This document shows positions 12,458-28,498 of a stretch of 64,000 bases of DNA, piece by piece. Every line of letters begins with the position of its first letter. The first letter of the stretch is position 1. Source of the stretch: Flavobacterium sp. UBA7665 (GTDB lineage: Bacteria > Bacteroidota > Bacteroidia > Flavobacteriales > Flavobacteriaceae); the NCBI GenBank assembly GCA_002483285.1, contig DLHP01000033.1, positions 22,980-86,979 on the forward strand, in the 5' to 3' direction. A program made the position numbers and the translations under genes. The notes beneath the pieces were generated by a model. The model worked only from the letters and a program-made list of their open reading frames with translations. It was not told the DNA's origin and did not search any database.

Positions 12458-12537
12458 GCCCGGATGGCGGAATTGGTAGACGCGCTGGTCTCAAACACCT
12501 GTGGGAAACCGTGCCGGTTCGACTCCGGCTCCGGGTA
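12458..12537 (+). tRNA. tRNA-Leu(CAA), CCA not encoded
   Basis: Acceptor GCCCGGA/TCCGGGT+A, D-loop GGAATTGGTAGAC, anticodon loop CTCAAAC, variable arm GG-GAAA-CC, T-arm GCCGG-TTCGACT-CCGGC. Confidence 0.95.
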
Positions 12538-14098
12538 CTTTAACGGAAAAGCTGCCAGAAATGGCGGCTTTTCTTTTTTTATTCTTGTTCCAACCCTCGT
12601 CAACTCTGGTCAAAACCTCAATTACCGTGTTAACCTCAGCGGTTCGACACCCGTCATTTCCAAAAATTAACTTCTCGGTAAATAGCGAACCCGCGAGGAT
12701 TCTTTTTCCATCGTAATCGCTTTCTATAAACAAAGTATCTAAGTTCGCTAACATTTCTAATCCACTATCTATATATTTTCCGATAGATTCGCAACCCGAT
12801 TGGAGAACTTCGATTTCCATATTCACTTGCATCAATTCGCGATTGTATCGCTCAATCATGTTATTATATCTGTCAGCTGCTAAAGTACCGCTCATAAGCA
12901 AATCGTCAGCTTTGTTGAGGTTGTCTTTGAGCAACTGCTGTCTTTCAGACTTAAGAGCGAGAGCTTTCTTTTTATCTCCGTTGATTTGAGCTTCACTATC
13001 TTTCAATATTTCAGAAAACAAGTCTTTTACATTTTTGTTGATTTGTAAATTTACGAGAAGACCTGCAAATCTTTCATGAGCTTCAAAACTCTGAACTCTC
13101 GTCTTGCAGTTTCCACGGCAATGGTAATATGCGTACCTCTTATTTCTTCCTGTTGATAAGCTTCCAGTAATTTGGCGGCCACAGTTTTCGCACGTCAAGA
13201 AATCCCGTAAAGGAAAATCTTCATTTCTATTTGAAGGTTTGAGTCCGTGCCAACGACCTTTTCGAAACACCTCCTGAACTTTGTTGAACGTAGCCAAATC
13301 AATTAACGGCTCATGAATAGCATTGACTACACAGGCGACTTCTTTTTTATACTCAGGTACAATTATTTTCCCCGCGTAGACAATATTCTTGAGCATTTCG
13401 CTAAATGAACTTTTTTTAAGATTCATTCCTTCGACATAAAGCTTTTTTCTTGTAGCTTCAATTGGCTCAACGTTAAGCGCGACTTGCTTAAAAGCTTTTG
13501 TTACAAAGTGCGCCATTGCGTTAGGTACTAATATCGAGCGTTTGCCTTTCGCACTTCCCCTTGTGCTTTTTGCTCCGTCTCTTTGACTCTCATAGCCAAA
13601 TGGTGCGCGACTTGCATAATAACCTTCCTTTTTTGCCTGATATGTTCCGTCCTTAGTTCTGCTTGCAATCTTGGCACGTTCAGCCTCTCCAATTGAAAGG
13701 TAAAAACTTAGGAGGATAACTCTATCCTGATTCTCAGATTCAAGCCATTGTTCAACTGCATTCGGTTCAATGCCGTAACTCTCAAGTTTTTTTATCTCCG
13801 TAAATGCATCGTGAATGTTTCGGGAAAACCTATCCCATTTCGTAAATAAGATTTTATCTACAAGCCGTTTGTTTGTTTTTACGAATGTTTGTAATCGAGA
13901 CCACTCAGGACGTTTGAAATTCTTAGCAGAATGGTCTTCGCGAAAAACGCCGACAACTTCATAATTCATGCGGTCGCAAAAGGCTCGCAGTGTTTCTTCT
14001 TGGTAATCTAAACTATATCCCTGTTGGGCTTGCTCGTCTGTACTTACTCTAACGTATAGTAAGACCTTCTGTAATGCTTCCATTTTCTTCATTTTCAT
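12491..14098 (-). CDS. Large serine recombinase (resolvase + recombinase + Zn-ribbon); C-terminus reads into the antisense tRNA
   Basis: YVRVSTDEQ catalytic Ser, KWDRFSRN, APFGY, CENCG...YYHC. The last 13 aa (GAGVEPARFPTGV) come from the tRNA complement. Confidence 0.93.
   Translation of the reverse strand: MKMKKMEALQKVLLYVRVSTDEQAQQGYSLDYQEETLRAFCDRMNYEVVGVFREDHSAKNFKRPEWSRLQTFVKTNKRLVDKILFTKWDRFSRNIHDAFTEIKKLESYGIEPNAVEQWLESENQDRVILLSFYLSIGEAERAKIASRTKDGTYQAKKEGYYASRAPFGYESQRDGAKSTRGSAKGKRSILVPNAMAHFVTKAFKQVALNVEPIEATRKKLYVEGMNLKKSSFSEMLKNIVYAGKIIVPEYKKEVACVVNAIHEPLIDLATFNKVQEVFRKGRWHGLKPSNRNEDFPLRDFLTCENCGRQITGSLSTGRNKRYAYYHCRGNCKTRVQSFEAHERFAGLLVNLQINKNVKDLFSEILKDSEAQINGDKKKALALKSERQQLLKDNLNKADDLLMSGTLAADRYNNMIERYNRELMQVNMEIEVLQSGCESIGKYIDSGLEMLANLDTLFIESDYDGKRILAGSLFTEKLIFGNDGCRTAEVNTVIEVLTRVDEGWNKNKKRKAAISGSFSVKVPGAGVEPARFPTGV
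12533..12538. other. attL core GGGTAC
   Basis: Overlaps the tRNA 3' end; encodes V-P in the recombinase frame (minus strand). Confidence 0.7.
12546..12580 (+). terminator. Element-supplied terminator for tRNA-Leu, antisense within the recombinase ORF
   Basis: gaaaagctgcca-gaaa-tggcggcttttc plus T7. Confidence 0.8.
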
Positions 14099-14231
14099 TT
14101 TTTTTTATGTTTTTTATGTGACAAATCTTTGCCACTTGGTATAGAACCTCTCGGATTGTTTCAATCTCTTCATCGGAATATCTTATTCCTTCGCGGTTCA
14201 CTATCTTTTTACAATCAGTAATCGACAGCAT
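14049..14231 (-). CDS. 60-aa protein overlapping the recombinase start (possible directionality factor)
   Basis: MLSITDCKKIVNREGIRYSDEEIETIREVLYQVAKI; function inferred from position only. Confidence 0.55.
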   Translation of the reverse strand: MLSITDCKKIVNREGIRYSDEEIETIREVLYQVAKICHIKNIKKNENEENGSITEGLTIR

Positions 14232-14267
14232 TTAATAATCCCGCAGAGATGCTGCGAGAAATTTTTA

Positions 14268-14849
14268 TTAAGTGGTTACTTCAGGATTTAGAAACTTATC
14301 GATTCCAGCTCCCCAGTTTATTTCTTCTTCTAAGATTGCGTGAACTTCGTCGCCTGTAAGCGATACATCTTTACTGTCAAGCAGTTTTCCGCCAAGCTTA
14401 ATTGCCGCTAACCAAACAATACTTTTCTCGAATAGCTTTACCGTCATTTTATGCATTTCTTCAAAAAATGTATAATTGAAGAAATCGCTTTTAGATAGAT
14501 TGTTTGCAAATTCTAATTTTTGACGAACGTTTCCATAATCACTATCAGGAAATATTCCATTAACGGCTTCGCCTAATTTATATGCAATTTCTGGTTTAAC
14601 ATATCCCCATTTAGTTTTTGCCTCTGCGACAAATCCCGCACAAGAGATTAAACACAGTTCTCGCATCTCGTTATGTAAAAGGTCAGAATACCCGTCCTCA
14701 AAATAGATTGGACGGTCACTCATTGGCATGCACATTCCTTCGCCATTAGTCTCAGCAGAGATATATCTCAGACGACGACCCAAAATATGGTATATTACAG
14801 CGTGTCCTGCTTCATGAAAAGCAGCTAACTCAATTTGTTTTAGTTTCAT
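14268..14849 (-). CDS. Stand-alone peptidase M41-like (FtsH protease domain) protein
   Basis: AFHEAGHAVI zinc motif, later CAGFVAE and SD; no ATPase or transmembrane part. Confidence 0.7.
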   Translation of the reverse strand: MKLKQIELAAFHEAGHAVIYHILGRRLRYISAETNGEGMCMPMSDRPIYFEDGYSDLLHNEMRELCLISCAGFVAEAKTKWGYVKPEIAYKLGEAVNGIFPDSDYGNVRQKLEFANNLSKSDFFNYTFFEEMHKMTVKLFEKSIVWLAAIKLGGKLLDSKDVSLTGDEVHAILEEEINWGAGIDKFLNPEVTT

Positions 14850-15235
14850 AATAATATGATTTTAGTTTTAGACATAGGAATTCCTGTCGAAGGAAACTCC
14901 GATTTTTAAATTTTGTATGTGTGGGAATGGCAATTGATGGCCTATCAATTTACCTGCTGTGACTATTCTTTAATTAGTGGCCGCTAAACAGAATAGAAAA
15001 ATCCTGCAAGAGATTTTGTTTCTTAGAATTCTTTCACAAATATATTCATGAATTTTCTTTTTTGCAAGCGGCCTAAAGTGCTGAGGGTCAAGTTTGTCAA
15101 ATATTGTTTTATATTTGGTTTTTTTTCAAATATAAAACAATATTTGGGAAGCTATAATTGATTGTCAATGAGTTATGATTTTTAAATTCGTAAAAAGCCG
15201 AACGTTAATGTTTTGTTAAACTTTAAATTAGCCGT

Positions 15236-15811
15236 CTAAACACTAAGATAAAGATTACTGATTTCGGTTTCACGGATGCCGAGATATATTTTAGTCGTGG
15301 CTACGTTAGTGTGATTAAATAACTGGGAAAGCAAAAGTAAAGCTTGGTCGCTGTATTTGTTTACCTCCCAGACCCGACGACCTAATGTTTTCCGCATGAA
15401 GTGGCTCGAATACTGTCCCTTGATATTATAGAAGTTAAAAATACTCTTTAGTTTGCCGTTCACATATTGGACGGAGAAGGGCTTATCTCCGAAACGATTC
15501 ACAAACATCAAATCACTTTCATTTGCCCCAAGCTGTCCGAACACTCGGCAAAGAACAGTTTGCAATTCTGGGTTTATTGTCACGCGCCTCGTCTTTTTGG
15601 TTTTTTTCTCAACAATGGTAAAATAGTCCTGATTCAAGACTTGATTCCATTTAAGCTGCAAAAGGTCGGAAATACGCAGACCGATATAACTGCCAGTCGC
15701 AATGAGCAACGCAAATTTTAAATCGCCGTCACGCTCCAACTTCAATACTAAGGTTTGCATCTTTTCCCACTCTAAAAAGTCCGAGGTTGTCTTTTGTCCT
15801 TTCAGTGCCAT
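15236..15811 (-). CDS. Small tyrosine recombinase (catalytic domain only)
   Basis: GLRISDLL (R), SHFMRKT (HxxR), HTNVATTKIY (H...Y); 191 aa. Confidence 0.9.
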   Translation of the reverse strand: MALKGQKTTSDFLEWEKMQTLVLKLERDGDLKFALLIATGSYIGLRISDLLQLKWNQVLNQDYFTIVEKKTKKTRRVTINPELQTVLCRVFGQLGANESDLMFVNRFGDKPFSVQYVNGKLKSIFNFYNIKGQYSSHFMRKTLGRRVWEVNKYSDQALLLLSQLFNHTNVATTKIYLGIRETEISNLYLSV

Positions 15812-15917
15812 AATTTCAAGTTTTTACTTTCACTTTTGTTCGATTTAGACCGTTTGTGAAAGCCGTTAATATTCCTCGTTGTGTTAACCCTTGATTTTGT
15901 TGGGTTTACCGTGCTTC

Positions 15918-15941
15918 TTTCACTTCTGATAGAAAGTGAAA
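15918..15941. promoter_or_regulatory. 8-8-8 palindrome beside the tyrosine recombinase promoter (candidate crossover/operator site)
   Basis: tttcactt-ctgataga-aagtgaaa, abutting a minus-strand -7 element (TACATTTG, 15942-15949). Confidence 0.45.
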
Positions 15942-16427
15942 CAAATGTAAATTCCTGGAAATTAACTACCTAACAAAAAATGTTAAATCCAGGACTGGCA
16001 AGGCTTTCCGCAATGTATAATTTGCTTTATCAATATTTGATTGCATTATTTTGCTTTGATAAGTTTACTGGTTGTGGAGGTTTGTTAATTGAGATTAAGT
16101 TTCGACATAATTTGACACCTCCGCCTTATGAAACTAAATTAAATTTTGGTCAATAACTAAATAAATGCACTAACCTAAGGGGTCTTGACCCCAAAGCGAA
16201 TGGAGGTTTAAGTTATAAGGGATTAAAAAAACGCTATTAGCCTTTATTTACTAATTAAATTTAAAATATTTTACTAATTAAAAATTGCAGTTATAGCAAC
16301 GATTTCGAAGATAAAAAAAAGTTAATAAATTTATAAGTGGTTTTTATATAAACCTAACATTATCAAGTGTTTTTCATTTTTTTTCAAAAAAAAACAGATG
16401 TATTAAAATAATATTTATCTTTGTCTC

Positions 16428-16997
16428 ATGAACAACGGAACACTAAATAAATTTCTAATAGAAAGAAAAAAAGAACTTCTTAAAGAATTAGATGCTATTG
16501 ATGTACTTATTGATGCTTCTGATTCTAAAGATGTATATAGTGAAGTTGTAAAATTATTGTCTGAGCGTATTACTTTTACTCCTCAAGGTTCTACTCGTGC
16601 GGAAACTAAAATACTTGAACCTAAGGATGTTGATATTTCTATCGGAATGGCTGCATCACAAGTTAAATTTTATGGAGGTGGGAAAATGATACCAATTGTT
16701 CGTAAAGCAGAGAACACAACATGGAAATATTATCTGGTCGAGGTTATTAAACGATTAGAAGGTAGTTGTAAAACGAATGATATTGCTGAGGTAATGATTT
16801 ATTCAATTAAAGATTTATCTTTTGTTAGAGCGAGGCAGATTGCTGCTGATTTACTCCCTGAATTAGTTAACGATGGACTACTGGAAGTTGAGAAAGGTGG
16901 TTCAAAAAAAGAAGGCCATACGTATATGGTTAAGGGGCATAAATTGAAAATTGTTAGAGATTATATAAAACAAATAAGCACCCAAAAGGATGCTTGA
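16428..16997 (+). CDS. Hypothetical protein: N-terminal coiled coil, C-terminal winged-helix-like region
   Basis: 189 aa AT-rich ORF; LIERKKELLKELDAID; KTNDIAEVM...LPELVNDGLLEVEKGG. Confidence 0.6.
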   Translation: MNNGTLNKFLIERKKELLKELDAIDVLIDASDSKDVYSEVVKLLSERITFTPQGSTRAETKILEPKDVDISIGMAASQVKFYGGGKMIPIVRKAENTTWKYYLVEVIKRLEGSCKTNDIAEVMIYSIKDLSFVRARQIAADLLPELVNDGLLEVEKGGSKKEGHTYMVKGHKLKIVRDYIKQISTQKDA

Positions 16998-17146
16998 TAA
17001 TAAGTTTAAAATGATTGCAGAAGCACTTTATAATGGTAACGGTCTGTGGAGCAAAGCAGATTCCAAACCTACTTTGGGGATTCATTCCAGAAAAGGGTAA
17101 GCGTCCAAAACTTACCAAGCTTTTGCTTTCTTTTTATTCTAATTTT

Positions 17147-17172
17147 GAAGGAGATGTGTCAGCATCTCCTTC
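17147..17172. other. 10-bp perfect hairpin (terminator or sRNA stem)
   Basis: gaaggagatg-tgtcag-catctccttc between convergent transcription units. Confidence 0.5.
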
Positions 17173-17245
17173 TTTTTTCAAAAACAAAGATACGCATTTT
17201 GTTTCAAAATATTTAAAACAGCCTATCTTGGCTTGTTCGATATAA

Positions 17246-17410
17246 TTAATGTTTTCCAATAGTCATTTGCCTCTTGTAACTGGTACTTCCGCAAGTGCAA
17301 CCCGTGAAACTACATTTTTGACAAGTGGTTTTATTACATTTGGCGCATTGCTTGGCGCGGTCGCCGCGGTGTGAGTTACCGCAATTAGGGCAAGAGGAAA
17401 TTTTATCCAT
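17246..17410 (-). CDS. 54-aa Cys-rich zinc-finger microprotein (not in ORF track)
   Basis: MDKISSCPNCGNSHRGDRAKQCAKCNKTTCQKCSFTGCTCGSTSYKRQMTIGKH; three CxxC plus CxC; starts 9 nt after the upstream stop. Confidence 0.7.
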   Translation of the reverse strand: MDKISSCPNCGNSHRGDRAKQCAKCNKTTCQKCSFTGCTCGSTSYKRQMTIGKH

Positions 17411-17419
17411 CGATGAGGT

Positions 17420-17722
17420 TTAGTTGGTGAAGTAAAGAATGATGATGCCGACAAATATGACCATGTGCAAGCCCACGATATAAGTGTATGGCTTTTCGTC
17501 TTTGGTTTTGTTGTCCAACGCTCCTTTATAATCGATTGGGTTGACGGCGTTAAACCTCTGTTCGTAATACGGGAGTATTCCCTTGACAAAGATTAATATA
17601 GATGCGATACATGACAACCATACGCAAAACCAAAACGAGGTATTTGGGATTCTCATAATCCGCTCTGCTATGAAACCGACGGCAAAGGGAAAGATAAGGT
17701 AAAGGATATGTTTTGCGTTCAT
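17420..17722 (-). CDS. Small membrane protein (3 TM)
   Basis: 100 aa with three hydrophobic segments. Confidence 0.7.
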   Translation of the reverse strand: MNAKHILYLIFPFAVGFIAERIMRIPNTSFWFCVWLSCIASILIFVKGILPYYEQRFNAVNPIDYKGALDNKTKDEKPYTYIVGLHMVIFVGIIILYFTN

Positions 17723-17871
17723 TGGTAAGCTGGTTTTACGTTTCCTGTTCGATAGTTCGGATTCATTTTTCTTGCCGTAAGGAGTGCCGCAGATGCGTTA
17801 GCAGCAAATACACGTGTTGCGGTCTTGAACCCGCCGCCCTTTGGGAAAAGGTCAACTATCCATTCTTTCAT
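17719..17871 (-). CDS. 50-aa microprotein (not in ORF track)
   Basis: MKEWIVDLFPKGGGFKTATRVFAANASAALLTARKMNPNYRTGNVKPAYQ; starts 2 nt after the lipoprotein stop, and its TGA overlaps the next ATG (ATGA). Confidence 0.65.
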   Translation of the reverse strand: MKEWIVDLFPKGGGFKTATRVFAANASAALLTARKMNPNYRTGNVKPAYQ

Positions 17872-17873
17872 CT

Positions 17874-18422
17874 TTATAGTTGTGTTATTGTTCCTTGGAA
17901 TGTTTGGACGTTTGCGTTAAGGTTGTCCAATGAGCCACCATTGTAGTAGCGATATATCTTAAATCCAGTCACAACTGCGTTTTCGCCGATGGTGAACTCT
18001 ACATAATCCTGAACTTGTAAGTCTGGAAAATCCAGTCTATACGTGACGCGAGGTTGACCTATGGTCACATAATCCTGATGCTGAAAAAGACCGACCGTAA
18101 AACTGGAAACAACATCAATTAGGCGAATGCCGATGCGCGTGTTTGATTTAACGAATGCCGCGCCCTGAAACCATTCATTAGTCCAATAGCTATTGTTGAA
18201 TTGAGGGGACGGAGTTGTAACATTTTCGTATGGTACACCTTCCATGTTCACGATAGCTTTATCAAGGGTTGCCGAAGTTGGGGACGCGTCAACGATGAGG
18301 TCAAATTGCGAGCCTGTCACACTTGTTTGACTTGTCGGAGGCATAATTGTTTCTTGGTCATTGTCGCCAGAACAGGAAATTAAAAGGGATAATAATGTTA
18401 GGGTAAGTAGCTTTCGTATCAT
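17874..18422 (-). CDS. Lipoprotein, probably surface exposed
   Basis: MIRKLLTLTLLSLLISC lipobox followed by acidic SGDNDQE; -7 element TATATTTG at 18444-18451. Confidence 0.75.
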   Translation of the reverse strand: MIRKLLTLTLLSLLISCSGDNDQETIMPPTSQTSVTGSQFDLIVDASPTSATLDKAIVNMEGVPYENVTTPSPQFNNSYWTNEWFQGAAFVKSNTRIGIRLIDVVSSFTVGLFQHQDYVTIGQPRVTYRLDFPDLQVQDYVEFTIGENAVVTGFKIYRYYNGGSLDNLNANVQTFQGTITQL

Positions 18423-18525
18423 GCTAATTTGTTTGAATATTAGCAAATATACAAAATAAACAGGTCTAAAACAACCTGTTTAATAAGATATATTGAATAC
18501 GTTGGCATTGCTCTAATTTTCTCCT

Positions 18526-18768
18526 ATGGAAATTAAACACGAAAAAGAGTTGGTAGAGCTTGGGAGTAGAATCAAAAAATTGATTGAGGATAAAGGATTA
18601 AAAGTTATGAACGTGGCGCACGATGCCAACCTTGATTCAACCAACTTGCGTAAATATGTCCGTGGTACGCAGGATATGCGTTATAGTACCTTATTAAGGA
18701 TTGCCGCCGCAATCGGCGTTACACCTTCGGAACTTTTGGACGGTCTGGAAATAAAAAAAGAAGGCTAA
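18526..18768 (+). CDS. XRE-family helix-turn-helix regulator
   Basis: LGSRIKKLIEDKGLKVMNVAHDANLDSTNLRKYVRGTQDMRYSTLLRIAAAIGVTPSELL. Confidence 0.9.
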   Translation: MEIKHEKELVELGSRIKKLIEDKGLKVMNVAHDANLDSTNLRKYVRGTQDMRYSTLLRIAAAIGVTPSELLDGLEIKKEG

Positions 18769-18911
18769 CCCTTCTTTTTGAGCAGCTCGACCAATTCTCT
18801 CGCGTCGGCTTTGGAAACCTTCTTCATATCAATTGTAATCGGATATTTTGGTTTAGTGTCTTCTCTTGCCAGCAATCTTTTAAACTGGTCAACGGTTAAT
18901 TTGAGCTTCAT
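18765..18911 (-). CDS. 48-aa basic microprotein convergent with XRE (not in ORF track)
   Basis: MKLKLTVDQFKRLLAREDTKPKYPITIDMKKVSKADARELVELLKKKG; stop overlaps the XRE stop. Confidence 0.55.
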   Translation of the reverse strand: MKLKLTVDQFKRLLAREDTKPKYPITIDMKKVSKADARELVELLKKKG

Positions 18912-19323
18912 AATTCTTTTATCTATAAATATTCTTTAGTTACGGTGAAGACCTAATTTTTTGAGCCAAAATTTTTTAAAAATTTTCTGAGGCCATCCGA
19001 TTGCCACCGACACCATTTGAAAATTGCCTGCCTTATAAGAGCGGAAACGCGAGTTGGGCTAATGGGAAATTCAAGAATTTTCGCCAGCAGGGAGGCAGGG
19101 GATGCTTTTCACTCTAACGGTTTTAGCTTGATGCCAGAAAAATAAAGACTTGCCAAGGGGTTTAGGTTTTAAAGTACGTGCTAAAGGTCTTGTCAAATCA
19201 TCCCCCTTATATCCCTGTGTCGGTTAATTCGAGGCCATTTTTGGATGCTTTCGGAACATTAAAATTACCTCGCTTCGCTTCTTGGATGAGGTTCTACATC
19301 GCCGAGACCATTCTCAAGTACCT

Positions 19324-19557
19324 GCGAGGCAATTTTTAAATGGTAGGCACTCCATCCACACGTTCCCTCATTATAAGAATATATATAAGAATAAAAGAAT
19401 TATAATAGATATATAGTTATCTATAATAAGGCAATCGTCAGATTGCCTCGGTATTGTAAACCACTTCCAACTTACTTAGTTTCTCTTTTCTTCAAATCAC
19501 CTCCAACGGAATCTTTGAAAAATAGAATCGCGAGGCAATTTTTAGATTGCCTCGGTA
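19324..19557. repeat. Putative replication origin: repeated AGGCAAT-N6-ATTGCCT palindromes around an AT-rich core
   Basis: Palindromes at 19429-19448 and 19531-19554, half-site at 19325-19333, nearly pure A/T tract ~19370-19428; upstream of a Rep-like gene. Confidence 0.5.
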
Positions 19558-19749
19558 AGATTTTAAGAAATATCGATAAATCTTTAAAAATCACTTGACT
19601 TTTTAGAATTCGTGCTTATACTTATCAAAACAGTTTTACAAAGGGGTTTGCTGGCGGGTTGCAGTCGCCAGCTTCCGTTGCCCCGAAATCAAAAACGGAA
19701 ATACCAATAATCGCCCGATTGGACGAAAGAGAATAACGGAATATCTAAA

Positions 19750-20535
19750 ATGGAATTCAAATCTTTGAACGACGTGTTCAGCAACAATTTTATTAAATCA
19801 TTACCACACCTTACCAGACTTGACCTAACAGCCAACGAAATCAAAATCATCGAGCTGGTCTTATCCTTTACCCATAAGGGTCTGGATTTCTATATGAACC
19901 ACGCGACCATCGCCGATTATCTGGTCTTAAAGGAGACCAAGACCAAAGCTAAATCAGTGGGCAATATCATCGCGAAGCTTCGTAAGAAGGGCTACATTGA
20001 GACCGTAACCACACACAACTATAACGGAAAGAATGGCGGCTCATCAACAATCATAACTGTTAACGAGGCGTATCTCGAAGAGCAGCTCCATGCCGTATTT
20101 AGCTCTATTGAGGTCTTAGACCAAAATACGCCGCAAGCCTTGTCAACATTGGAGTTAGAACAAGTTAAGATGCAGCTCCCTAATGCGACCCCATCGGGTT
20201 CTGCGGATGCGGTATCTTTCCCGTATAACTACGAGACCAAGAGACAAACCGCAGCCGAATTTGTAGCTGAATTGGATTGTATGGTTGACGAGCCGCGACC
20301 AGTCTTAAACCTTCCAAGTTTGAAAGATTTCGAAGACCCTGACGATGGAGAGCAAGAGGATTTCGGTTACATGGAATTCGAGACTTTAGAAGGCTTCAAA
20401 TCTTTGCTTCAAGCATTGATAGGTCTTGACCAGATGTATCTCAAGAGAGGGACATTACAGCAATTAATTGACAATAGGCTGGGTTGGGATTTAGACAGGA
20501 TGAAAGAGGCGTTTGCATCGACCATACTTAGATAA
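19750..20535 (+). CDS. Winged-helix protein resembling phage/plasmid replication initiators
   Basis: DLTANEIKIIELVLSF...MNHATIADYL...SVGNIIAKLRKKGYIE (HTH_36-like), with an acidic C-terminal region. Confidence 0.6.
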   Translation: MEFKSLNDVFSNNFIKSLPHLTRLDLTANEIKIIELVLSFTHKGLDFYMNHATIADYLVLKETKTKAKSVGNIIAKLRKKGYIETVTTHNYNGKNGGSSTIITVNEAYLEEQLHAVFSSIEVLDQNTPQALSTLELEQVKMQLPNATPSGSADAVSFPYNYETKRQTAAEFVAELDCMVDEPRPVLNLPSLKDFEDPDDGEQEDFGYMEFETLEGFKSLLQALIGLDQMYLKRGTLQQLIDNRLGWDLDRMKEAFASTILR

Positions 20536-20592
20536 ATGAAAATAAAAAATCACTGGCTCAAGGTCAGTTATTATTATTTTTAGTTAAAGATT

Positions 20593-21249
20593 TCAGGCTG
20601 CTATATTTTTTGAAAAATCTAACATTAAATGATAAATTACAACTTCGTTATGCGCAGAGCAGTAAGAATAGTTGAAATCAGTTCTAAGCACTCTGGTGCT
20701 GAGTATTTTTGTTGTATTAGCTGTCCTATACGAATTCTGGAGTAACTGGTTTATTGACCCAATGTTAGCCGCTATATCCAGTGGCTGAACAACAAATCCA
20801 ATCATGCCATTGATTTTATAATGTGTTGAATAAGCTTTAGTAGTAAAACGGCATATCCCATTTTCTATATATTTTGCATTTAAGCCAGTAGTTCCATTTA
20901 AGTTATTGCTATCAAGTCTTTTACATTCTATGATATAATAGGCTTGGGCGTCTAAAAATGTATTTACGGTTTGAATTTTTATATCTGTTCTTCCTACACT
21001 TGCATCCTCTGGAACTTCTCGGTCGAATAAATAGGATATTAATCCCATCTTATTTCGAATTTCATTGTTTTTTAAATACTGTAAAAGGAGGACGTCACGA
21101 ATGGAATTTTCATCGTTTGCTAAAGTTACGTTGTCTTCTAACATAAGATAGTAGCAGCCGACTATTTTTGTAAGAAGGTCTTCAAATTCTGCATTATAGA
21201 AATACTCACTGTACTCGAAGTTGGTTGCGCTTAAATTGTTAAATATCAT
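20593..21249 (-). CDS. PD-(D/E)xK nuclease-like protein
   Basis: GRTDIKI...YYIIECKRL pattern; start overlaps the methyltransferase stop by 11 nt. Confidence 0.65.
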   Translation of the reverse strand: MIFNNLSATNFEYSEYFYNAEFEDLLTKIVGCYYLMLEDNVTLANDENSIRDVLLLQYLKNNEIRNKMGLISYLFDREVPEDASVGRTDIKIQTVNTFLDAQAYYIIECKRLDSNNLNGTTGLNAKYIENGICRFTTKAYSTHYKINGMIGFVVQPLDIAANIGSINQLLQNSYRTANTTKILSTRVLRTDFNYSYCSAHNEVVIYHLMLDFSKNIAA

Positions 21250-24200
21250 GGCGTTTACCTCCTTCCTTTAATATAGCATCAGTAAATTCATTAACATCTA
21301 AATATGCTATTGCCGAATGCCACAATTTCATTTCATTGGGTTTGAAAATATAGAAATAATCTTTTTCAAATCCTCGGATGTCTTTTTGAACAAAAAGTTT
21401 TTCGGTAATTTTTGAAATTCCCATTGCGGCTAAAAAGTTCAAAATGCCTAAGTCATCGGTTTGTTTGTCTATCCACTCTATTTCTTCTTTATAATCATTT
21501 CTTGGAATTATTTTGAAAAACATTCCAATTAATTGATTCGTATGCCATATTTCGATAATGAATTTATTATTACCATTTTCAAGCTTTTTGAAACGAGATT
21601 TAAAAACCTGTGCATACTCAAATAGTAACTCGGACTTGAATGGTATTGGAGAGAAGAGTCTTCTCTTACTTGATGCATCACCCACGATTAGGATTTTAGC
21701 AATGTTTTCACAGTAATTTATTAGTGCATTTTCGGTCTCGTCAATTTCAAATGACTGAATAACGGTTTTGTTAATAGATTTTAATTCTTTTTTTATGATG
21801 GAATTCAATTCGTCAATCTCAATATTATTTATTATGCCCGTATTTTGCTCTTCAAATAACTTTTTTTGAGCAGTTTCAATATTTTCTACATTTGAAGAAA
21901 CATCCATATTTATGTATGGAAGGCTATATTTGTTATAATTTTTCACCCGTTCTCTTTCTACCCCTATCGATGAAAAAATATTTATAGCATAATACATAAA
22001 AAGGTTCGTGCTAAAAATTGACGCAATGTTGTGAAGAACATTCAACTGTTTTTCATCTATTGCTTTTATCGAAGTTATCGAATCCTTAAATAAAACATCC
22101 TTTGTAGAAATAGCACATTTTGCTGTGAGAGTTTTCATATCAATTCCCTCTCGAATTAGAAGCATCGGATGATGGTAAATTCTCACATCTTTTATAATAT
22201 CAATTTTTTCTTTTTCTAAAACTCCAATTTTGTCGTAGTCGATATAGAAAGAAGTGATTGCTTCTGTTTTTAGAAAGGATATACCTTCAATTATACTCGT
22301 ATTTTTAGTTTCTTTTAAAGGGAGCGTTCTACTGTGAAGCCCAGTAGATTCGACAAATAAATCTTTATTTGAAACTATGTTCTTAACAGTTGGAAAATTA
22401 TCTTTCAGCCTTTTTATAAAATTAAAATCGAGATATGACCCATATACTAATACTTTCCAAATCCAATCATGTAGTTTAAAGTTTTGTTGATTAATTAATT
22501 TATAATCGGAACGGTTAATAGTAAAAACTTTAAATAGAGAGAAAAACCTACTTTGTTTTAAAGCAATATGTTCAACGACATTTTTATCAGTATTTTCGCC
22601 GCGCGCGTATCGATAAAATAAAACGGCTGCTGGAGCTACAGCGGGTTGATTCGATTTTTCAAAAACTTCATGCCGTACTGGAGCTAATTCAAAAACTCTA
22701 TCGACGAAATATTCTTCCAACCAATATTGTCTAAATGGACTAAAATTGTCATTGTATCCAAGATTGTAGAGACTACTGCTCCTAATAATTAATGATATGC
22801 GCGTAGTCGCAGAGCAAAAGTCACTAACCCTTAAGACAAATGCTTCTGCAATTTCATTATTATTGATTGCAATCGGATATTTTTTATGCTTTTCTTTTTT
22901 ACTTCGATTCTTTAGATAGGTATTACCTATATCGTCCATTCCATTTCCCTTCCACGGTGGATTTCCCAATATAAATTGAAAGCTGACTTTATTTAAAATA
23001 GAATTGAATGTTGAATTTTCATCAAAAAAATCGGCTTCAAAAAAGTTCGTATTAAAAAGCTCAGGGAAGGTAAATGTTTCAATCTCTTTAGGCTCTAAAT
23101 AATCCAATAACGTAAGGTAAATCGAAAAAATTGCTACTTGGACAGCACTTAGGTCTTTATCAATCCCATATATATTGTCCTGCGCTAAACGCTTTATCGC
23201 TATTTTGAATTCCTCACTGCCGACTTCAATTCCACTATCAGAAATAAACTTCTCAATAACTTTGCGAAGCGTTTCTACAAGGAAAATACCTGAACCACAT
23301 GCGGGGTCTAAAACCTTACAAATGGCAAAGTCAGAAGTGTTTTTTGATAATGCCGAAACTTTTCTGTCACTTTGAAAAATTTCCTTTTCTACAGTTTCTT
23401 TTAAAATATAATCAACTAAAAAAAGAGGAGTATAATATGCTCCCTCTTTTTTTTGATTTTCTTGACCAATAAACATTTCGTAAACATTACTGATAAATTC
23501 AATAGGGATTATCGCAAAGTCATAGAAATCGAACAGCGATAGTTGCCCACTTTCTATGTTTTCGCCATTTAAAAGACGTTTAATGACCTTATATTGGTTT
23601 AAAGTTATTTCATCAAATTCTTCATCAGATAATGGGAAAATGTCGCCTTTAAACCCTTTTTCGTCATTCTCTAAATAATCAAAAAATGATTTGATTTTTT
23701 CAGGATAAGAAAGTAATTCGGAAAACTCATTATTACTCCAAGTTCGAAGCTCGCCATCGAAATTAATTTTTACTTTCCTATCAATAAGATATCTTACAAA
23801 AATTGCTTTTCCAATTATAGCGTTTGCAATTTTAGCAGATAGATTTTGCTCTACTAATTGTTTTCTTGCACTTTGGATGTTTCGTAAAAGATGATAGTCT
23901 ACTCTTTTCTTGTAATTCAGGAGTTCTTGATGTTTTTCCCATGTATTTCCACTTACCAATCGGAAATAGCTAAAATCATCAAGTTTCTCATCTTTTCCCA
24001 ATACCTTTAATAGCTTGGATTTTAAATCGAAATCAAAACCATTGAATATCTCTACAATATTATTCTCTATTATGATTGAAATAGGACACTCGTTGAAATT
24101 CCATATGGCTTTATGTAAAGCGTGCTTATTTGGAGGATTTTCGAAAAATAATATAAGAGGTTTGTTATCAAAACAAAAAAACGCCTTTGGTTTAATATCT

Positions 24201-25072
24201 TTTTCAATCAATCTTTTGACACGGTTTGGAAAGGCAGTTTCATTTTTCCAAGTGTCCTCATGTGTGTAAAAAAGGCCATTATCCTTATTAAGTCCAAGGC
24301 GTGTATATATTTCTTCCAAATTTGCCATCAAATAATCTCCTCTTTGTATTTTATCAAGTTTGAAATTTGAAATTGTGTTATTAATATATTCCTCTGTATA
24401 AAGAATTTTTCCAAAGTGTTTTAATTGCGTCTGATTGTATTCTAATTTGGTTTTGTATAATTGAATTAAATATCTTTTTAATTTATCAGCAATCGCTAAA
24501 TTATACTCGTTTGCATAATATAAAGTGTTAACGACACATAAACTTACATTCGCATTCGGCTTATACAGATAATTTATTTCCCGATTTTGCAGGAAGCTTA
24601 AAAAATCGGTTTTGTAATAAAATTTTTTTTCATTTAAAGAAAAGAGTATTGCGGAAAAATTAAAAAATGCAGTAGAAGGAATAAAGCGGTGCAAATTATC
24701 AACCTCACTATCCAATTCAAGCCTTTTTTGATACTGAACCGCCCATGTTTTCTCTAACGTCCACAAATCGATATTTGTTTCTGAAATATTGATTTTATAA
24801 CCGCCAAAACTATTGCGCCTGACGGATATAGAATTAGGAACTAAAAGTTCAATGTTTATATCATCTCGAATAACAATATCTAAATCCCGAATTTCTTCTT
24901 TTTGCAAAAAGAAATTTCTTATAACTCCACTGAATATGTACACATCATTTACCTCAGCAAGGCGCATCAAAAAAGAATGTACCTCAGCATCTACGTTACG
25001 CTTGATATATTCTAAAAATTCCTCTGAAGAGGAATTGACAATGTCTGCAATATCAGATAATTTTTTGGCCAC
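21239..25072 (-). CDS. Fusion: CCA/poly(A)-polymerase-like nucleotidyltransferase (aa 1-248) + type IIG-like N6-adenine DNA methyltransferase with C-terminal TRD (aa 249-1277)
   Basis: NTase: IFSGVIRNFFL...IRDLDIV, NSFGGYK, IDLW. MTase: GAYYTP, LDPACGSGIFL, GNPPW. GTG start overlaps the dGTPase stop; in-frame ATG at 24328. Confidence 0.8.
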   Translation of the reverse strand: MAKKLSDIADIVNSSSEEFLEYIKRNVDAEVHSFLMRLAEVNDVYIFSGVIRNFFLQKEEIRDLDIVIRDDINIELLVPNSISVRRNSFGGYKINISETNIDLWTLEKTWAVQYQKRLELDSEVDNLHRFIPSTAFFNFSAILFSLNEKKFYYKTDFLSFLQNREINYLYKPNANVSLCVVNTLYYANEYNLAIADKLKRYLIQLYKTKLEYNQTQLKHFGKILYTEEYINNTISNFKLDKIQRGDYLMANLEEIYTRLGLNKDNGLFYTHEDTWKNETAFPNRVKRLIEKDIKPKAFFCFDNKPLILFFENPPNKHALHKAIWNFNECPISIIIENNIVEIFNGFDFDLKSKLLKVLGKDEKLDDFSYFRLVSGNTWEKHQELLNYKKRVDYHLLRNIQSARKQLVEQNLSAKIANAIIGKAIFVRYLIDRKVKINFDGELRTWSNNEFSELLSYPEKIKSFFDYLENDEKGFKGDIFPLSDEEFDEITLNQYKVIKRLLNGENIESGQLSLFDFYDFAIIPIEFISNVYEMFIGQENQKKEGAYYTPLFLVDYILKETVEKEIFQSDRKVSALSKNTSDFAICKVLDPACGSGIFLVETLRKVIEKFISDSGIEVGSEEFKIAIKRLAQDNIYGIDKDLSAVQVAIFSIYLTLLDYLEPKEIETFTFPELFNTNFFEADFFDENSTFNSILNKVSFQFILGNPPWKGNGMDDIGNTYLKNRSKKEKHKKYPIAINNNEIAEAFVLRVSDFCSATTRISLIIRSSSLYNLGYNDNFSPFRQYWLEEYFVDRVFELAPVRHEVFEKSNQPAVAPAAVLFYRYARGENTDKNVVEHIALKQSRFFSLFKVFTINRSDYKLINQQNFKLHDWIWKVLVYGSYLDFNFIKRLKDNFPTVKNIVSNKDLFVESTGLHSRTLPLKETKNTSIIEGISFLKTEAITSFYIDYDKIGVLEKEKIDIIKDVRIYHHPMLLIREGIDMKTLTAKCAISTKDVLFKDSITSIKAIDEKQLNVLHNIASIFSTNLFMYYAINIFSSIGVERERVKNYNKYSLPYINMDVSSNVENIETAQKKLFEEQNTGIINNIEIDELNSIIKKELKSINKTVIQSFEIDETENALINYCENIAKILIVGDASSKRRLFSPIPFKSELLFEYAQVFKSRFKKLENGNNKFIIEIWHTNQLIGMFFKIIPRNDYKEEIEWIDKQTDDLGILNFLAAMGISKITEKLFVQKDIRGFEKDYFYIFKPNEMKLWHSAIAYLDVNEFTDAILKEGGKRHDI

Positions 25073-26525
25073 TTAATTTTTGATAATGGTCTAATGCAAA
25101 TTGGTCAGTCATCCCTGTAATAAAGTCCACAATAATTCTAAGTTTAGAATAATCAGTTAATTTGGTTATATCCTTGTCATTTTCAGGAATTTTATTTTCC
25201 ATTTGAACAGTACGATAAATGCTATTTGAAATCATGCCAATAGCTCTATTACGGTATTTTTCCTCTTCATGAAAAATAAACTCAATATAGTAATCCATAA
25301 GGCCTGTCAATACAGCATGTCCTGTAAGTTCTAAAGAAAGTATTTCTTTTTTAGGGAAAATATGTTTGCCACAAAATATTGAAAGCTTTTTAGTTAATTT
25401 CAGACTGTCGTCTTTTATAAGTTCTTTGTTATACTTTCCTTCATAAATTTCGGGTAAGTGTTTAAAGAAATTTTCAATTGTTATACCGACCAACCTCTCT
25501 ATTAAATAAATTCTTAAATCTACCATTTTAGAGATTTCTCTTCCATAATCGTAAACCTTAATATTAATTCCCTCAAGCGTCTTAAGTAATTCGACATCCA
25601 AGATTTCAGGCTCATTTGATAGTTTTCCATCAGAATCGACTTTAAGCTTTAAGTGTTTTTCTAAATCTTCAAAGCCATACCATCCCTTGTTGAAACCATC
25701 TTCAATATCCATGGTTAAATAACAAATTGAATCCGCCGCTTCCATCAAAAAAGCTAAAGGATGCCGCATGTTTTTTCCTTGACTATCTTTTAGTCCACAT
25801 GCGTCAACGATTTTTTCTAAATATTCTCGTTCAGGCTGAAAAACGCCTCTTTTACTTGTAGACAAGCTTGCCCCATCCACATTATCCGCATTAGGATATT
25901 TTAAGAACGCACCTAATGTAGCATGTGTAAGGTTTAAACCATATGCATTGCTAAGTGCTTGTAACTTCGTTAGAATTCTAAATCCTTGAGCATTGCCATC
26001 ATAATTCTTAAAGTCATCAATTTCTTTTTGACTCATTATAAAAATGCGTTTATTATTTTCCGTAGCCTTTTTTTTAATTTCGGGAGTGATATCTTCCTTC
26101 TTATCTACGACAATTGAATTTTCAAATAATTTTTCAAAATAATTTTGAATTACCGTTTCGCCAAAATGACCAAATGGCGGATTTCCAATGTCATGCACTA
26201 AACAAGCATTTTTTAATATTATCGGAATTGCTCTTAGTAATTGCTCTTTAGTCTGTCCTGTTTCTGAAACAAAAGATGCATCTGCACATACTCTTACACC
26301 TAACGAATATCCTATCGCCATAACCTCCATAGAGTGGGTTAATCTCGAATGTATGTGGTCATCAGTAGTTAAAGGGAATACTTGCGTTTTATCGTGCATT
26401 CTTCGGATAGCGGGACTAAATATTACTCTTCCAAAATCGCTCTCGAAATCATTTCTAATTTCGTCATCAAATGTCTTAGAAGACGGTTTTAATCTGCCTT
26501 TGCTTAAAAATTTATCCCAATTCAT
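25053..26525 (-). CDS. dgt: dGTP triphosphohydrolase (HD family), island-borne
   Basis: RRMHDKTQVFP, HSRLTHSMEV, HDIGNPPFGHFGE, DGNAQGFR, EAADSICY...DIEDG. Confidence 0.93.
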   Translation of the reverse strand: MNWDKFLSKGRLKPSSKTFDDEIRNDFESDFGRVIFSPAIRRMHDKTQVFPLTTDDHIHSRLTHSMEVMAIGYSLGVRVCADASFVSETGQTKEQLLRAIPIILKNACLVHDIGNPPFGHFGETVIQNYFEKLFENSIVVDKKEDITPEIKKKATENNKRIFIMSQKEIDDFKNYDGNAQGFRILTKLQALSNAYGLNLTHATLGAFLKYPNADNVDGASLSTSKRGVFQPEREYLEKIVDACGLKDSQGKNMRHPLAFLMEAADSICYLTMDIEDGFNKGWYGFEDLEKHLKLKVDSDGKLSNEPEILDVELLKTLEGINIKVYDYGREISKMVDLRIYLIERLVGITIENFFKHLPEIYEGKYNKELIKDDSLKLTKKLSIFCGKHIFPKKEILSLELTGHAVLTGLMDYYIEFIFHEEEKYRNRAIGMISNSIYRTVQMENKIPENDKDITKLTDYSKLRIIVDFITGMTDQFALDHYQKLSGQKII

Positions 26526-26600
26526 ATTAGTTTGATTTGATATCAAAATAAGAATTTTAAAAGGATAAATCCTAACATTTTCTTTCGTTGTTTCGTGTTC

Positions 26601-26702
26601 TCAATATTGATGCCGCCTCCCATCTGTTATAGTTTGATATGCTATTGCGAGTCGTTTTAAATCTTCCACAAAACGGTTCGACAATTCAACGTTGTAGGGT
26701 AC
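26601..26702 (-). other. Displaced 3' end of the serine recombinase gene (attP-side tail) plus attR core
   Basis: Reads V-P-YNVELSNRFVEDLKRLAIAYQTITDGRRHQY-stop; the GGGTAC core encodes V-P in the same frame as at attL. Confidence 0.7.
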
Positions 26703-26996
26703 AAAAAGCTCTTCTGAAAAGAAGGGCTTTTTTTTTGGAGCGGAGTCAAACATTTTTTGTTTGACGGCTCCGAGTACAAAAAGCGCTGCTTGAAAGGAAG
26801 GTTTTTTTTGAAGCGGAGTCAAACATTTTTTGTTTGACGGCTCCGGGTACAAAAAGCGCTGCTTGAAAGGAAGGTTTTTTTTGGAGCGGAGTCAAACATT
26901 TTTTGTTTGACGGCTCTTGGTACTGAAAAGCCTCTTCTTTTTGAAGGGGCTTTTTCTTTTTAGGATTGGTGTCAAACATTTTTTGTTTCACGGCTT
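26697..26996 (+). repeat. ~73-bp tandem repeats (about 4 units): palindrome + tRNA-Leu 3' end + terminator-like hairpin
   Basis: gtcaaacattttttgttt(g/c)ac starts at 26745, 26818, 26891, 26971; cggctccgggtac at 26838-26850 is identical to 12526-12538. Confidence 0.9.
26703..26736 (+). terminator. Native tRNA-Leu terminator displaced by the insertion
   Basis: aaaaagctcttc-tgaaaa-gaagggcttttt plus T tract, directly after the attR core. Confidence 0.65.
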
Positions 26997-27076
26997 CGTA
27001 GCATCCACATTAACATTTCCAACTCTAGATGTCTAATGGCGCGTTCAAAATCAGCAACCCTATTATCAGCTAGAAT

Positions 27077-27105
27077 AAAAAAAGCCACCAGTAAAACTGA
27101 TGGCC
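27077..27105 (-). terminator. Terminator of the nuo operon
   Basis: A7 plus gcca.cag-taaaa-ctga.tggc stem. Confidence 0.55.
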
Positions 27106-27127: not shown

Positions 27128-28498
27128 TTAACCGAGTAAATCCAACACAAACGAAGGATACAATCCCATCGCGATATTGAGCAGCATCGAGACCACCGCA
27201 ACCGCATAAATCAAAACGGGTGTTCCGCTGCGTTCCTGGTTGGGTTCTTTGGTGTACATGGCCAGGATCAATTTGAAATAATAACCCACAGAAATGATCG
27301 AGTTGATGACCGCGGCAATCACCAAAAGCAAATGTCCGGCTTGGATTACCTGGTTGAATAAGATTAGTTTGGCGAAGAATCCAGAGAAAATCGGAATTCC
27401 CGCCATCGAAAGCAACGCACCAGTAAGGATTGCAGCGAGCAAAGGATTGGTTTTCCCGAGTCCGTGGAAATTCGTGATGTCTTCATTGTCTCGGTTGCGA
27501 CACACGTAAATAATGACGCTAAACGCGGCGATTCCGGCGAGCGCATAAGCCGCGGCATAATACAACAAACTCGAAGCAGCGATTGACGCGCTGAGCAAAG
27601 TCATCAGCATAAAGCCCGCATGCGAAATCCCAGAAAAAGCCAGCATCCGCTTCACGTTGCTTTGGCGTAAAGCCATGATGTTTCCTACGGTCATCGATGC
27701 AATTGATATGACTACAACAATCATTTGGAAAGCAGGCGAAATATCGGCATTAAGCACCGTCAACAATTTATAGAGTGTAGCCATAGCCACTACTTTGGCA
27801 AGTGTACTCATGGTAGCGGTAGTCAGTGATGGAGCACCTTCATAAACATCGGGAGCCCAGAAATGGAACGGAACTGCGGCAATTTTGAAAAGCATACCAA
27901 TCGTTACCAAAATGATTCCAATCGGGAACCAAACTGGCAATTCGGCAGAACTCGACAATTCGCTGATTTCAATCACGTCAAAGCTTCCCATGGCGCCGTA
28001 AATCAGGCAGATTCCAAAAAGGATGATTCCTGAGGCAAACGATCCCATCAGGAAATATTTCATACCGGCTTCGTTGCTCTTGAGGTTCAAACGGCTGCTG
28101 GCAGCCAAAATGTACAACGCAATCGACAGCACTTCAATACCCAGGAAAAACATCGCGAGGTTGCCAAAAGACACCATCGCAACAGCGCCCGACAAAAGGA
28201 AAATCTTGATGGCAATAAAATCAGAAAGTTTGGTTGGCTGGTTTTGGTAGAAGTTGTGGCTCAAGGCGACCAGGAAAATTGTGAGGATGATGAACAAGCC
28301 CGAAAAAGCCGAAGCAAATTTATTGACTACAATCATGTTGTTGTAGTAACTGGCTTCGAGCCCGAATTCGGATGCCGTTAAACCGAGGATGGCCAACAAC
28401 CCAAGAATGGTTACCGGAACGAGTGCCTTTCTCCAATTGAGGATTTCAAATAAAAGGCACAAAACACCCAATCCTATTATAGCTATTAATGTATTCAT
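27128..28498 (-). CDS. nuoN: NADH-quinone oxidoreductase subunit N
   Basis: EAGMKYF, FKIAAVPFHFWAPDVYEGAP, KRMLAFSGISHAG. Confidence 0.95.
   Translation of the reverse strand: MNTLIAIIGLGVLCLLFEILNWRKALVPVTILGLLAILGLTASEFGLEASYYNNMIVVNKFASAFSGLFIILTIFLVALSHNFYQNQPTKLSDFIAIKIFLLSGAVAMVSFGNLAMFFLGIEVLSIALYILAASSRLNLKSNEAGMKYFLMGSFASGIILFGICLIYGAMGSFDVIEISELSSSAELPVWFPIGIILVTIGMLFKIAAVPFHFWAPDVYEGAPSLTTATMSTLAKVVAMATLYKLLTVLNADISPAFQMIVVVISIASMTVGNIMALRQSNVKRMLAFSGISHAGFMLMTLLSASIAASSLLYYAAAYALAGIAAFSVIIYVCRNRDNEDITNFHGLGKTNPLLAAILTGALLSMAGIPIFSGFFAKLILFNQVIQAGHLLLVIAAVINSIISVGYYFKLILAMYTKEPNQERSGTPVLIYAVAVVSMLLNIAMGLYPSFVLDLLG

Follow-up and report, generated by a model that had tools for sequence, protein, structure and literature searches.

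The stretch analyzed here, 64,000 nucleotides of contig DLHP01000033.1 from Flavobacterium sp. UBA7665 (hereafter the window; all array coordinates are positions in this 64-kb stretch), contains a single tRNA gene, tRNA-Leu(CAA) at 12458-12538, and, well downstream of it, a tandem array of short repeats that copy the 3' end of that tRNA. The array (26697-27003) consists of four head-to-tail modules with a period of 73, each comprising a palindrome and then a copy of the tRNA-Leu(CAA) 3' end, CGGCTCCGGGTAC, together with a terminator-type hairpin (Table 1). Tandem Repeats Finder reported 3.2 copies of period 73 at 26697-26931 (90% matches, score 371), and a repeat search added the fourth, more diverged copy, giving spacings of 73, 73, and 80. 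Four copies of the palindrome GTCAAACATTTTTTGTTTGAC are present (at 26745, 26818, 26891, and 26971; only the fourth has a mismatch, a single one) against an expectation of 0.02, and a scan of the window found no copy outside the array. The core CGGCTCCGGGTAC is the final 13 nt of the tRNA (12526-12538); it has five matches in the window versus 0.44 expected, with array copies at 26838 (no mismatches), 26765 (one), and 26911 (two), and the fourth copy, at 26991-27003, is degenerate. An earlier reading of the DNA made without database searches (hereafter the sequence-only reading) had proposed such an array of tRNA-end copies, and these counts bear it out. It had also proposed that the second unit reproduces 20 bp of the bacterial attachment site (attB) predicted to have existed before an insertion at the tRNA; at 26838-26857 this unit does read cggctccgggtac followed by aaaaagc. 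Units 1 and 2 are 97% identical, which indicates recent tandem amplification, and the decayed T_b modules and distal cores indicate relaxation.

Table 1. Features of the tRNA-Leu(CAA) locus and the repeat array, by position in the window.
Feature	Position	Strand	Evidence or remark
tRNA-Leu(CAA) gene	12458..12538	+	ARAGORN; Rfam tRNA match 51.5 bits
Large serine recombinase gene	12491..14098	-	Resolvase and Recombinase domains
Inserted island, 14.2 kb, from tRNA 3' end to array	12539..26696	.	Relatives without the insertion; Pfam
Island-borne terminator, now ending the tRNA transcript (P' arm)	12539..12585	+	Hairpin of -20.7 kcal/mol, T run
Island right end (P arm)	26601..26702	-	Would encode the recombinase C-terminus in the excised circle
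GGGTAC	26697-26702		Sequence common to the tRNA end, at the island right end
T_a, good bidirectional terminator hairpin	26703-26736	+	-15.7 kcal/mol; pre-insertion terminator of the tRNA
Unit 1: hairpin (palindrome 26745-26765) and core CGGCTCCGAGTAC, 1 mismatch	26737-26777	+	-18.9 kcal/mol
T_b, decayed terminator module	26778-26809	+	-4.1 kcal/mol; missed by terminator scan
Unit 2: hairpin and perfect 13-nt core	26810-26850	+	Core and palindrome matches
T_b, second copy, decayed	26851-26882	+	-4.1 kcal/mol; missed by terminator scan
Unit 3: hairpin and core CGGCTCTTGGTAC, 2 mismatches	26883-26923	+	Core and palindrome matches
T_c, good terminator hairpin	26924-26961	+	-18.2 kcal/mol; detected by terminator scan
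Unit 4, degenerate: palindrome 20/21 intact, outer arm and core CGGCTTCGTAGCA decayed	26962-27003	+	Repeat and palindrome matches
nuoN terminator	27082-27106		Terminator scan
nuoN, convergent chromosomal neighbour	27128..28498	-	Proton_antipo_M domain

The array is the native chromosomal downstream flank of tRNA-Leu(CAA), displaced 14.2 kb by the inserted island. Two metagenome contigs (L106 and L125) match the window at 93-94% identity from prs to the tRNA end (11171-12538) and then run directly into an array, and a third (L090) is 89% identical to 26743-39212, covering the array, nuoN, and the nuo operon; together, they give the order prs, tRNA-Leu, array, nuoN in the sister lineage, with nothing between. 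In more distant relatives (L087, L094, L098, L119, and L131), the T_a sequence that begins at 26703 directly follows the tRNA, confirming the attB that had been predicted. The T_a sequence (26703-26739) was also observed after another tRNA-like 3' end, GGTTCGAGTCCTATTACCCGCACA, in contigs of X1, X4, X11, and X12, and is thus a terminator module common to different tRNA genes.

Folding of the whole array region is far more stable than that of shuffled sequence (z = -7.2). A hairpin with a T tract had been described for every unit; with a G+C-rich stem and a T run as the mark of an intrinsic terminator, T_a and T_c qualify and both T_b copies fail. The palindrome does lie where the T-arm would be, as had been noticed, but that description was incomplete because both arms are themselves tRNA copies. 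Apart from one deletion and one substitution, the 5' arm, GGAGC-GGAGTCAAAC, matches the tRNA segment GTTCGACTCCGGCTCC in reverse complement, and the 3' arm is a direct copy of the same segment; the hairpin therefore comes wholly from the T-loop, T-stem, and acceptor 3' strand of the tRNA. Neither ARAGORN nor the Rfam tRNA model detects a cloverleaf in the units, their sole call in the window being the tRNA gene itself. A permissive Rfam scan of 11000-28000 yielded only sub-threshold chance matches in the array (best 27.6 bits versus a threshold of 55), and a promoter search in the units gave no sigma-70-type site and, by eye, no properly spaced Bacteroidota TTG...TAnnTTTG. Open reading frames (ORFs) of 81 and 83 amino acids on the minus strand over the array have a repetitive lysine-rich translation that is a product of the repeat itself.

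Arrays of this kind recur behind tRNA-Leu(CAA) in many genomes of Flavobacterium and of other Bacteroidota. A scan of metagenomes for pairs of core copies at a distance of 45-75 nt yielded 50 loci, of which about 19 were a tRNA-Leu(CAA), or a contig starting or ending inside such an array, with one to five units that each end in GGCTCCGGGTAC; one other was a tRNA-Leu(TAA), the remainder were unrelated coding repeats, and other tRNAs were too few among the fetched loci to judge generality beyond tRNA-Leu. In loci that had not been selected for arrays, the unit count was four in the window, two in L046, three in both L060 and L063, and zero in both L003 and L056. The repeats lie immediately downstream of the tRNA in L046, L060, L063, and the metagenome loci where the tRNA is visible. 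Units of the Flavobacterium type follow the pattern of terminator, hairpin (...TCAAA[C/T]-loop-[G/A]TTTGA...), and core, and the spacing in other arrays is 68-82 bp. Comparable units exist in other Bacteroidota lineages: in a second family, B (L086, L100, L124, and L127), a palindrome of 34-38 nt lies inside a T-arm copy and there is no terminator, and in L088, every loop of a partial tRNA copy holds a palindrome. The copy tracks the tRNA of its own species, in that L063 (Flavobacterium longum CIP 111716) has GGCCCCGGGTAC in the tRNA end and units alike. Copy number varies among close relatives, and units are absent from many related genomes (L003, L133, L134, L141, and L142). The module can still be recognized between species whose prs genes are only 76-78% identical.

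Beyond the window's own contig (L001), the palindrome was found only in L046 among 80 related loci (~1.4 Mb); blastn against phage and plasmid collections gave no match to the array, and the hairpin-plus-core pattern had no match in viral contigs. Short hairpin-bearing arrays of this type were not found described in the searchable literature, which is not proof of absence. Further repeat structures were seen at some of these loci. L088 (reverse-complement 1-850) contains five 82-bp copies of tRNA-Leu from the anticodon stem onward, in which CCGATAGCTATCGG replaces the variable loop and T-loop; these are followed by a small ORF that, by eye, resembles GIY-YIG nucleases, and then by a pseudo-tRNA with the same palindrome in its D-loop and variable/T-arm region. 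Upstream of the tRNA, L098 and L131 have tandem repeats of ~66 bp that close with its first 9 nt, GCCCGGATG, and then leader-like sequence, and L060 has such upstream repeats ~90 nt before the tRNA.

Comparison of relatives shows how units are gained and lost. L119 equals L003 plus 81 bp (T_a, hairpin, and core) placed exactly after the tRNA end, with the flank beyond orthologous, and L094 is likewise the L133 post-island flank with this 81-bp module added, the breakpoints being at the core. The T_a-plus-hairpin module is common to the window, L087, L094, L098, L119, and L131, with sequences diverging abruptly after ...GGGTAC|; the closely related genomes that have it also share the tRNA leader. 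A unit is thus a discrete core-bounded module, and the DNA beyond the core is exchangeable. Islands of a second type use the same tRNA end. In L147/L148, the order is prs, tRNA-Leu(CAA), a 5.2-kb island, a second copy of CCGGCTCCGGGTAC (13-14 bp), and then a serine-recombinase island. The 5.2-kb island encodes a 386-amino acid Bacteroidota-type tyrosine integrase (Arm-DNA-bind_5, Phage_int_SAM_5, and Phage_integrase domains), so that tyrosine-integrase islands at tRNA-Leu duplicate the same 13-14 nt that is found in the units; the layout also shows that a displaced partial tRNA copy is indeed used as a landing site by the recombinase family. L152 is an un-integrated relative of the L147 element, and its own attachment site (attP) consists of a core followed at once by a terminator hairpin, which is the arrangement of each array unit. 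The DNA between array repeats is terminator and hairpin only, and a terminator after the core is seen not just in the L152 attP but also in the island arm at 12539-12585. The suggestion that the units are scars of past integrations is therefore supported, if indirectly, by the precise 81-bp difference and by the 13-14-bp repeat flanking the L147 island.

The window recombinase matches PF00239 (1.9e-25) and PF07508 (7.3e-07); it has an N-terminal Resolvase domain, a Recombinase domain, a length of ~500 amino acids, and its own attachment site adjacent, as in large serine recombinases. Its ORF crosses the left island junction and stops 48 nt within the tRNA, and its last 15 amino acids are consequently encoded by the tRNA antisense strand. 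Homologues below 1e-30 numbered 460, and tails were compared among the best 120 (P0001-P0120); 52 of these 120 share the tail VPGAGVEPARFPTGV encoded by the tRNA antisense. The attP rebuilt from both island ends reads ...VKVPYNVELSNRFVEDLKRLAIAYQTITDGRRHQY*, with a longer tail of ...VPYNVELSNRFVEDLKRLAIAYQ..., and long attP-type tails are present in apparently un-integrated homologues. The attachment site thus lies inside the recombinase gene, and integration exchanges the C-terminus of the protein: here (12491-12538; 26601-26702), the ~33 last codons, VPYNVELSNRFVEDLKRLAIAYQTITDGRRHQY, were replaced by 15 tRNA-Leu antisense codons, VPGAGVEPARFPTGV. Because of this swap, the tail of each homologue discloses its source, that is, which tRNA, a partial copy, or the free form. 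No match to the recombinase was found in viral contigs.

Gene neighbourhoods were viewed for nine homologues: five adjoin prs and tRNA-Leu(CAA), three are on contigs too short to include prs, and one (P0063; L143-L146) lies elsewhere, behind another recombinase island at tRNA-Ala. The latter locus (L143 reverse-complement ~4533-15400) holds two tandem serine-recombinase islands, of which the first abuts tRNA-Ala(GGC); an rve-family insertion sequence comes next, and then P0063, adjoining a tRNA-like 3' remnant, GGTTCGACTCCCGTACGGGGTAC, where a tRNA gene is lacking. A protein of 200-225 amino acids with only a Resolvase domain was seen in the recombinase islands of L133, L134, L141, L143, and L147, and none in the window island; such a second protein finds a parallel in the pairs CcrA/CcrB and DsiA/DsiB.

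The right junctions of six islands (the window and five others) share an arm, ...TTCGACAAYTC...GGTAC|, and then continue into differing terminators, so the recombinase tolerates variation on the chromosomal side. The first 16 nt of the P' arm terminator (12539-12585) are conserved among other recombinase islands, and the sequence shared at the serine recombinase junctions is GGGTAC only. The window is the only case in which the right junction runs into an array, and the four recombinase islands whose far end is visible lack units; the recombinase therefore neither requires nor produces arrays. Every island seen beside a genome with a visible array or tRNA was at the genuine tRNA. Four of 56 tRNA-Leu-type homologues (P0022, P0039, P0053, and P0066, at loci L147/L148, L149, L150, and L151) are inserted at partial tRNA copies with ~13-22 nt, and the array units thus carry what those occupied sites carry. 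In L147, this copy was shown to be at another island's far end; the remaining three contigs stop too early to reveal the DNA upstream. The proposal that the units are spare landing pads is made plausible by these four insertions, although no island has been caught between 73-bp units. On the further suggestion that the units are decoys, the data favor neither side. The half-sites of serine-integrase attP and attB are known to differ by a 5-bp offset. TTCGAC is 10 nt from GGTAC in the tRNA, compared with 15 nt for the island arm and 7 nt for the units; an argument from this spacing, which would suit the offset, that the units are poor attB sites was considered and withdrawn, because conservation of the arm reflects C-terminus coding in the excised form and because relatives integrate at copies without the TTCGAC motif (L147 and L151).

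We favor the interpretation that the units are att modules left behind at a hot spot of integration, which have been amplified in tandem, are slowly decaying, and are plausible as secondary attB sites; we would give this a probability of about 0.5. The serine recombinase would have placed a putative defence island exactly at the tRNA-Leu 3' end, pushing the array 14.2 kb away. Each unit may be seen as a miniature attachment-site module made of a 13-nt tRNA-end copy, a tRNA-derived palindrome, and an element-type terminator hairpin, and the modules would be leftovers of integrations at the hot spot, comparable to the scars of cis-mobilizable elements. They would come and go by precise insertion and deletion between core copies, and amplify or contract in tandem by unequal recombination or slippage before slowly decaying. 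The first module would probably have come from an integrated element rather than by plain duplication. As each module keeps its core, each is a candidate secondary attB, and the units of the window are probably competent for recombination.

Several observations weigh against this interpretation. No element whose end carries the hairpin was found among viral contigs, phages, plasmids, or the L147 and L152 arms; no island was seen between units of a 73-bp array; and the window recombinase itself used the tRNA-proximal site. Reduction of a whole element to the same ~68-bp remnant demands a precise interior deletion, and uniform remnants would be explained if a single ancient reduction event followed by inheritance is assumed. 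L098 and L131 have repeats upstream of the tRNA as well, which points to a locus that is generally prone to duplication at both tRNA ends. Lineage-specific T-loop bases of the cognate tRNA are tracked by the 5' arm, which reads GGAGTC where the tRNA has ...GACTCC (CT type), GGGCTC where it has ...GAGCCC (GC type), and GGGATC where it has ...GATCCC (TC type). Of 25 unit hairpins, 22 are more stable on the sense strand than on the antisense (28 G.U pairs versus 15). The tracking and the strand preference hint at a constraint on RNA or on single-stranded DNA, of which a scar would have no need, although the arms could also be kept matched without any function by template switching and gene conversion from the tRNA.

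The strongest of the alternatives, and still an unlikely one, is that the 3' region of the tRNA was simply duplicated in tandem, through slippage or unequal crossing-over, which is the origin proposed for tyrT. There would be no element and no function, and the attB match would be incidental. The 178-bp repeats after tyrV in Escherichia coli K-12, which end in the tRNA-Tyr 3' end, speak for it, as do the recency indicated by the 97% identity of units 1 and 2, the unequal copy number among close relatives, and the 5'-side tandem repeats of L098 and L131. Template switching is an established mutational mechanism that can hold palindrome arms complementary without selection, and it could have kept the arms complementary here. 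However, the two terminators of single-unit arrays differ, and the second is orthologous to the sole terminator of relatives without units, which gives the look of an inserted module rather than of a local duplication. Moreover, identity to the tRNA ends at the same 13-14 nt that the tyrosine-integrase island duplicates, and the module remains recognizable at a prs divergence where only 76-78% identity is left.

It is rather improbable that the units act as RNA. Read-through of the terminator would then yield hairpins with a tRNA-like 3' tail, of the 3' external-transcribed-spacer type, that mimic, mask, or titrate factors that bind the tRNA 3' end. Three wastewater runs look RNA-dominated; coverage of prs in them is patchy or absent (zero in most bins), compared with an even ~31-46 in the DNA run X6. 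The depth in these runs is 84-700 at the tRNA, and at the first unit of L125, it is 11-12 in two runs and 0 in the third; overall, unit sequence is present in the RNA-dominated metatranscriptome contigs at ~2-3% of the tRNA depth. Contigs of X4 and X11 span the tRNA end, T_a, and the hairpin, and also the hairpin, core, and next module. An attempt to read RNA ends from contig ends was rejected, as these follow breaks in the repeat graph and do so likewise in the DNA run X1. The contigs are strandless, and the adjacent convergent nuo operon could give antisense read-through; we regard the RNA evidence for the units as suggestive only. The idea of the units as templates for tRNA-like small RNAs processed at their 3' ends, also raised from the sequence alone, is weakly supported: unit sequence is present in these contigs, but ARAGORN and Rfam recognize in it no tRNA or known family.

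The better sense fold of 22 of 25 units, inner-stem mismatches that are G.U and not A.C, and compensatory changes (AAAC/GTTT to AAAT/ATTT, and GTC/GAC to GC/GC) would suit an RNA role. Per-unit folds were used here instead of a covariance model because the MAFFT alignment of 21 units mis-registers the stems. In family B arrays, there is no terminator between the tRNA and the units, which must there be co-transcribed. In the window, by contrast, a strong terminator precedes unit 1, the units have no promoter-like site and no Rfam family at its gathering score, and decay is seen in two terminator modules as well as in two cores; moreover, units are entirely absent from many related genomes (L003, L133, L134, L141, and L142). 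We are more doubtful still of a broader proposal, that the hairpin with its tRNA tail is a conserved functional element of Bacteroidota tRNA-Leu loci, a self-complementary T-arm/acceptor mimic co-evolving with the tRNA and serving either as an RNA decoy or sponge for tRNA-3'-end enzymes or toxins, or as a folded-DNA recombination site for stacking and shuffling islands.

That the palindrome is a protein-binding or recombination core site of tyrosine-recombinase or Xer-type geometry, and the array a stack of such sites, we consider very unlikely. The palindrome has two inverted arms of 8-11 bp around a spacer of 5-7 bp, which would fit the core sites of recombinases; it is a perfect 8-5-8 in units 1-3 and retains 20 of 21 positions in the otherwise decayed unit 4, and the 73-bp spacing of the window corresponds to ~7 helical turns. 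However, the arms covary and have no single fixed sequence, favoring a nucleic-acid hairpin over a protein half-site; the spacing is 68-82 bp in other arrays; arrays without an island have no linked recombinase gene; and the palindrome is absent from the phages, plasmids, and viral contigs searched. Finally, the chance presence of a dispersed repeat of the repetitive extragenic palindromic or miniature inverted-repeat transposable element type, which a short palindromic unit in the intergenic gap of convergent genes might have suggested, was refuted at the depth sampled and is scarcely credible, since there is no second location in the 64-kb window, only L046 beyond the own contig L001 in 80 related loci (~1.4 Mb), and every instance found lies directly after tRNA-Leu with both arms derived from the tRNA.

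The cargo of the 14.2-kb island (14268-26546) looks like that of a defence island from its predicted proteins. It includes a 1277-amino acid MmeI-type protein (N6_Mtase/MmeI_Mtase) that is methyltransferase/restriction-like, an overlapping 218-amino acid gene of unknown function, a 497-amino acid HD/HD_assoc (dGTPase-like) protein, a 191-amino acid tyrosine-recombinase catalytic domain without N-terminal DNA-binding domains, and several other function-unknown proteins. The gene order of a sister island (L132) is identical. Upstream of the tRNA, a sub-threshold match to Flavo-1 RNA (37.2 bits versus a gathering score of 42, E = 7e-5) lies in the gap between the L25 gene and prs at 11078-11186 on the minus strand.

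The picture that emerges is of an integration hot spot built on a single tRNA end, of which at least two recombinase families make use, with minimal att-like modules behind it in a variable stack that are gained and lost precisely. Should the units prove to be live secondary attB sites, they would explain how defence islands can accumulate at one address without destruction of the tRNA, and they would offer a widespread large serine recombinase family natural targets of minimal size (a 13-nt core whose right side is tolerant), which would be of interest to the development of integrase tools. The tRNA-templated palindrome that tracks lineage-specific T-loop bases is a regularity still to be explained.

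Tandem repeats directly after a tRNA, each ending in its 3'-terminal segment, are also found at the E. coli tyrT-tyrV locus, and the sequence-only reading was correct in naming tyrT as a precedent. In the K-12 sequence, which was checked, 178-bp repeats each end in the tRNA-Tyr 3' end, with copies at four positions after tyrV; the unit also holds, in inverted orientation, a short match to the 3' strand of the tRNA, GGGGAAGGAT, along with a T-arm-like stretch, and RttR and tpr are annotated at the locus. The array described here differs in its 73-bp length, in the tRNA-derived palindrome that replaces the T-arm, and in having a terminator per unit; it also has no annotated RNA or peptide, lies at a proven integration hot spot, and is spread over many Bacteroidota.

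As a general rule, the side of an insertion farther from the tRNA gene carries a partial copy of the tRNA 3' part (PMC9897764). Such partial tRNAs at attR are usually one per element and kilobases away, whereas here there are four, in a head-to-tail 73-bp register with no element between. At Dehalococcoides ssrA, islands with a serine recombinase of ~540 amino acids, and often a second protein of ~200 amino acids, beside the t(m)RNA end are stacked with 20-bp repeats of the 3' end, and some intervals that lack genes or an integrase were read as remnants of cis-mobilizable elements (PMC3146451). The recombinases in the present study are similar at 517-536 amino acids, and a Resolvase protein of 200-225 amino acids accompanies them in L133, L134, L141, L143, and L147. 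In contrast, the intervals here are ~60 bp without genes, not kilobases with genes, and the serine recombinase shares GGGTAC only at its junctions rather than 20 bp. NBU1-type elements use tRNA-Leu through a short common core at its very 3' end (PMC10865867), and in L147, a Bacteroidota-type tyrosine integrase likewise goes with a 14-bp repeat, CCGGCTCCGGGTAC, at the tRNA-Leu 3' end; the window island differs in having no such integrase, only the 191-amino acid catalytic-domain protein. The nearest formal counterpart of the array is tyrT-tyrV, and the nearest mechanistic ones are the stacks of att repeats and cis-mobilizable remnants, together with core use of the NBU1 type.

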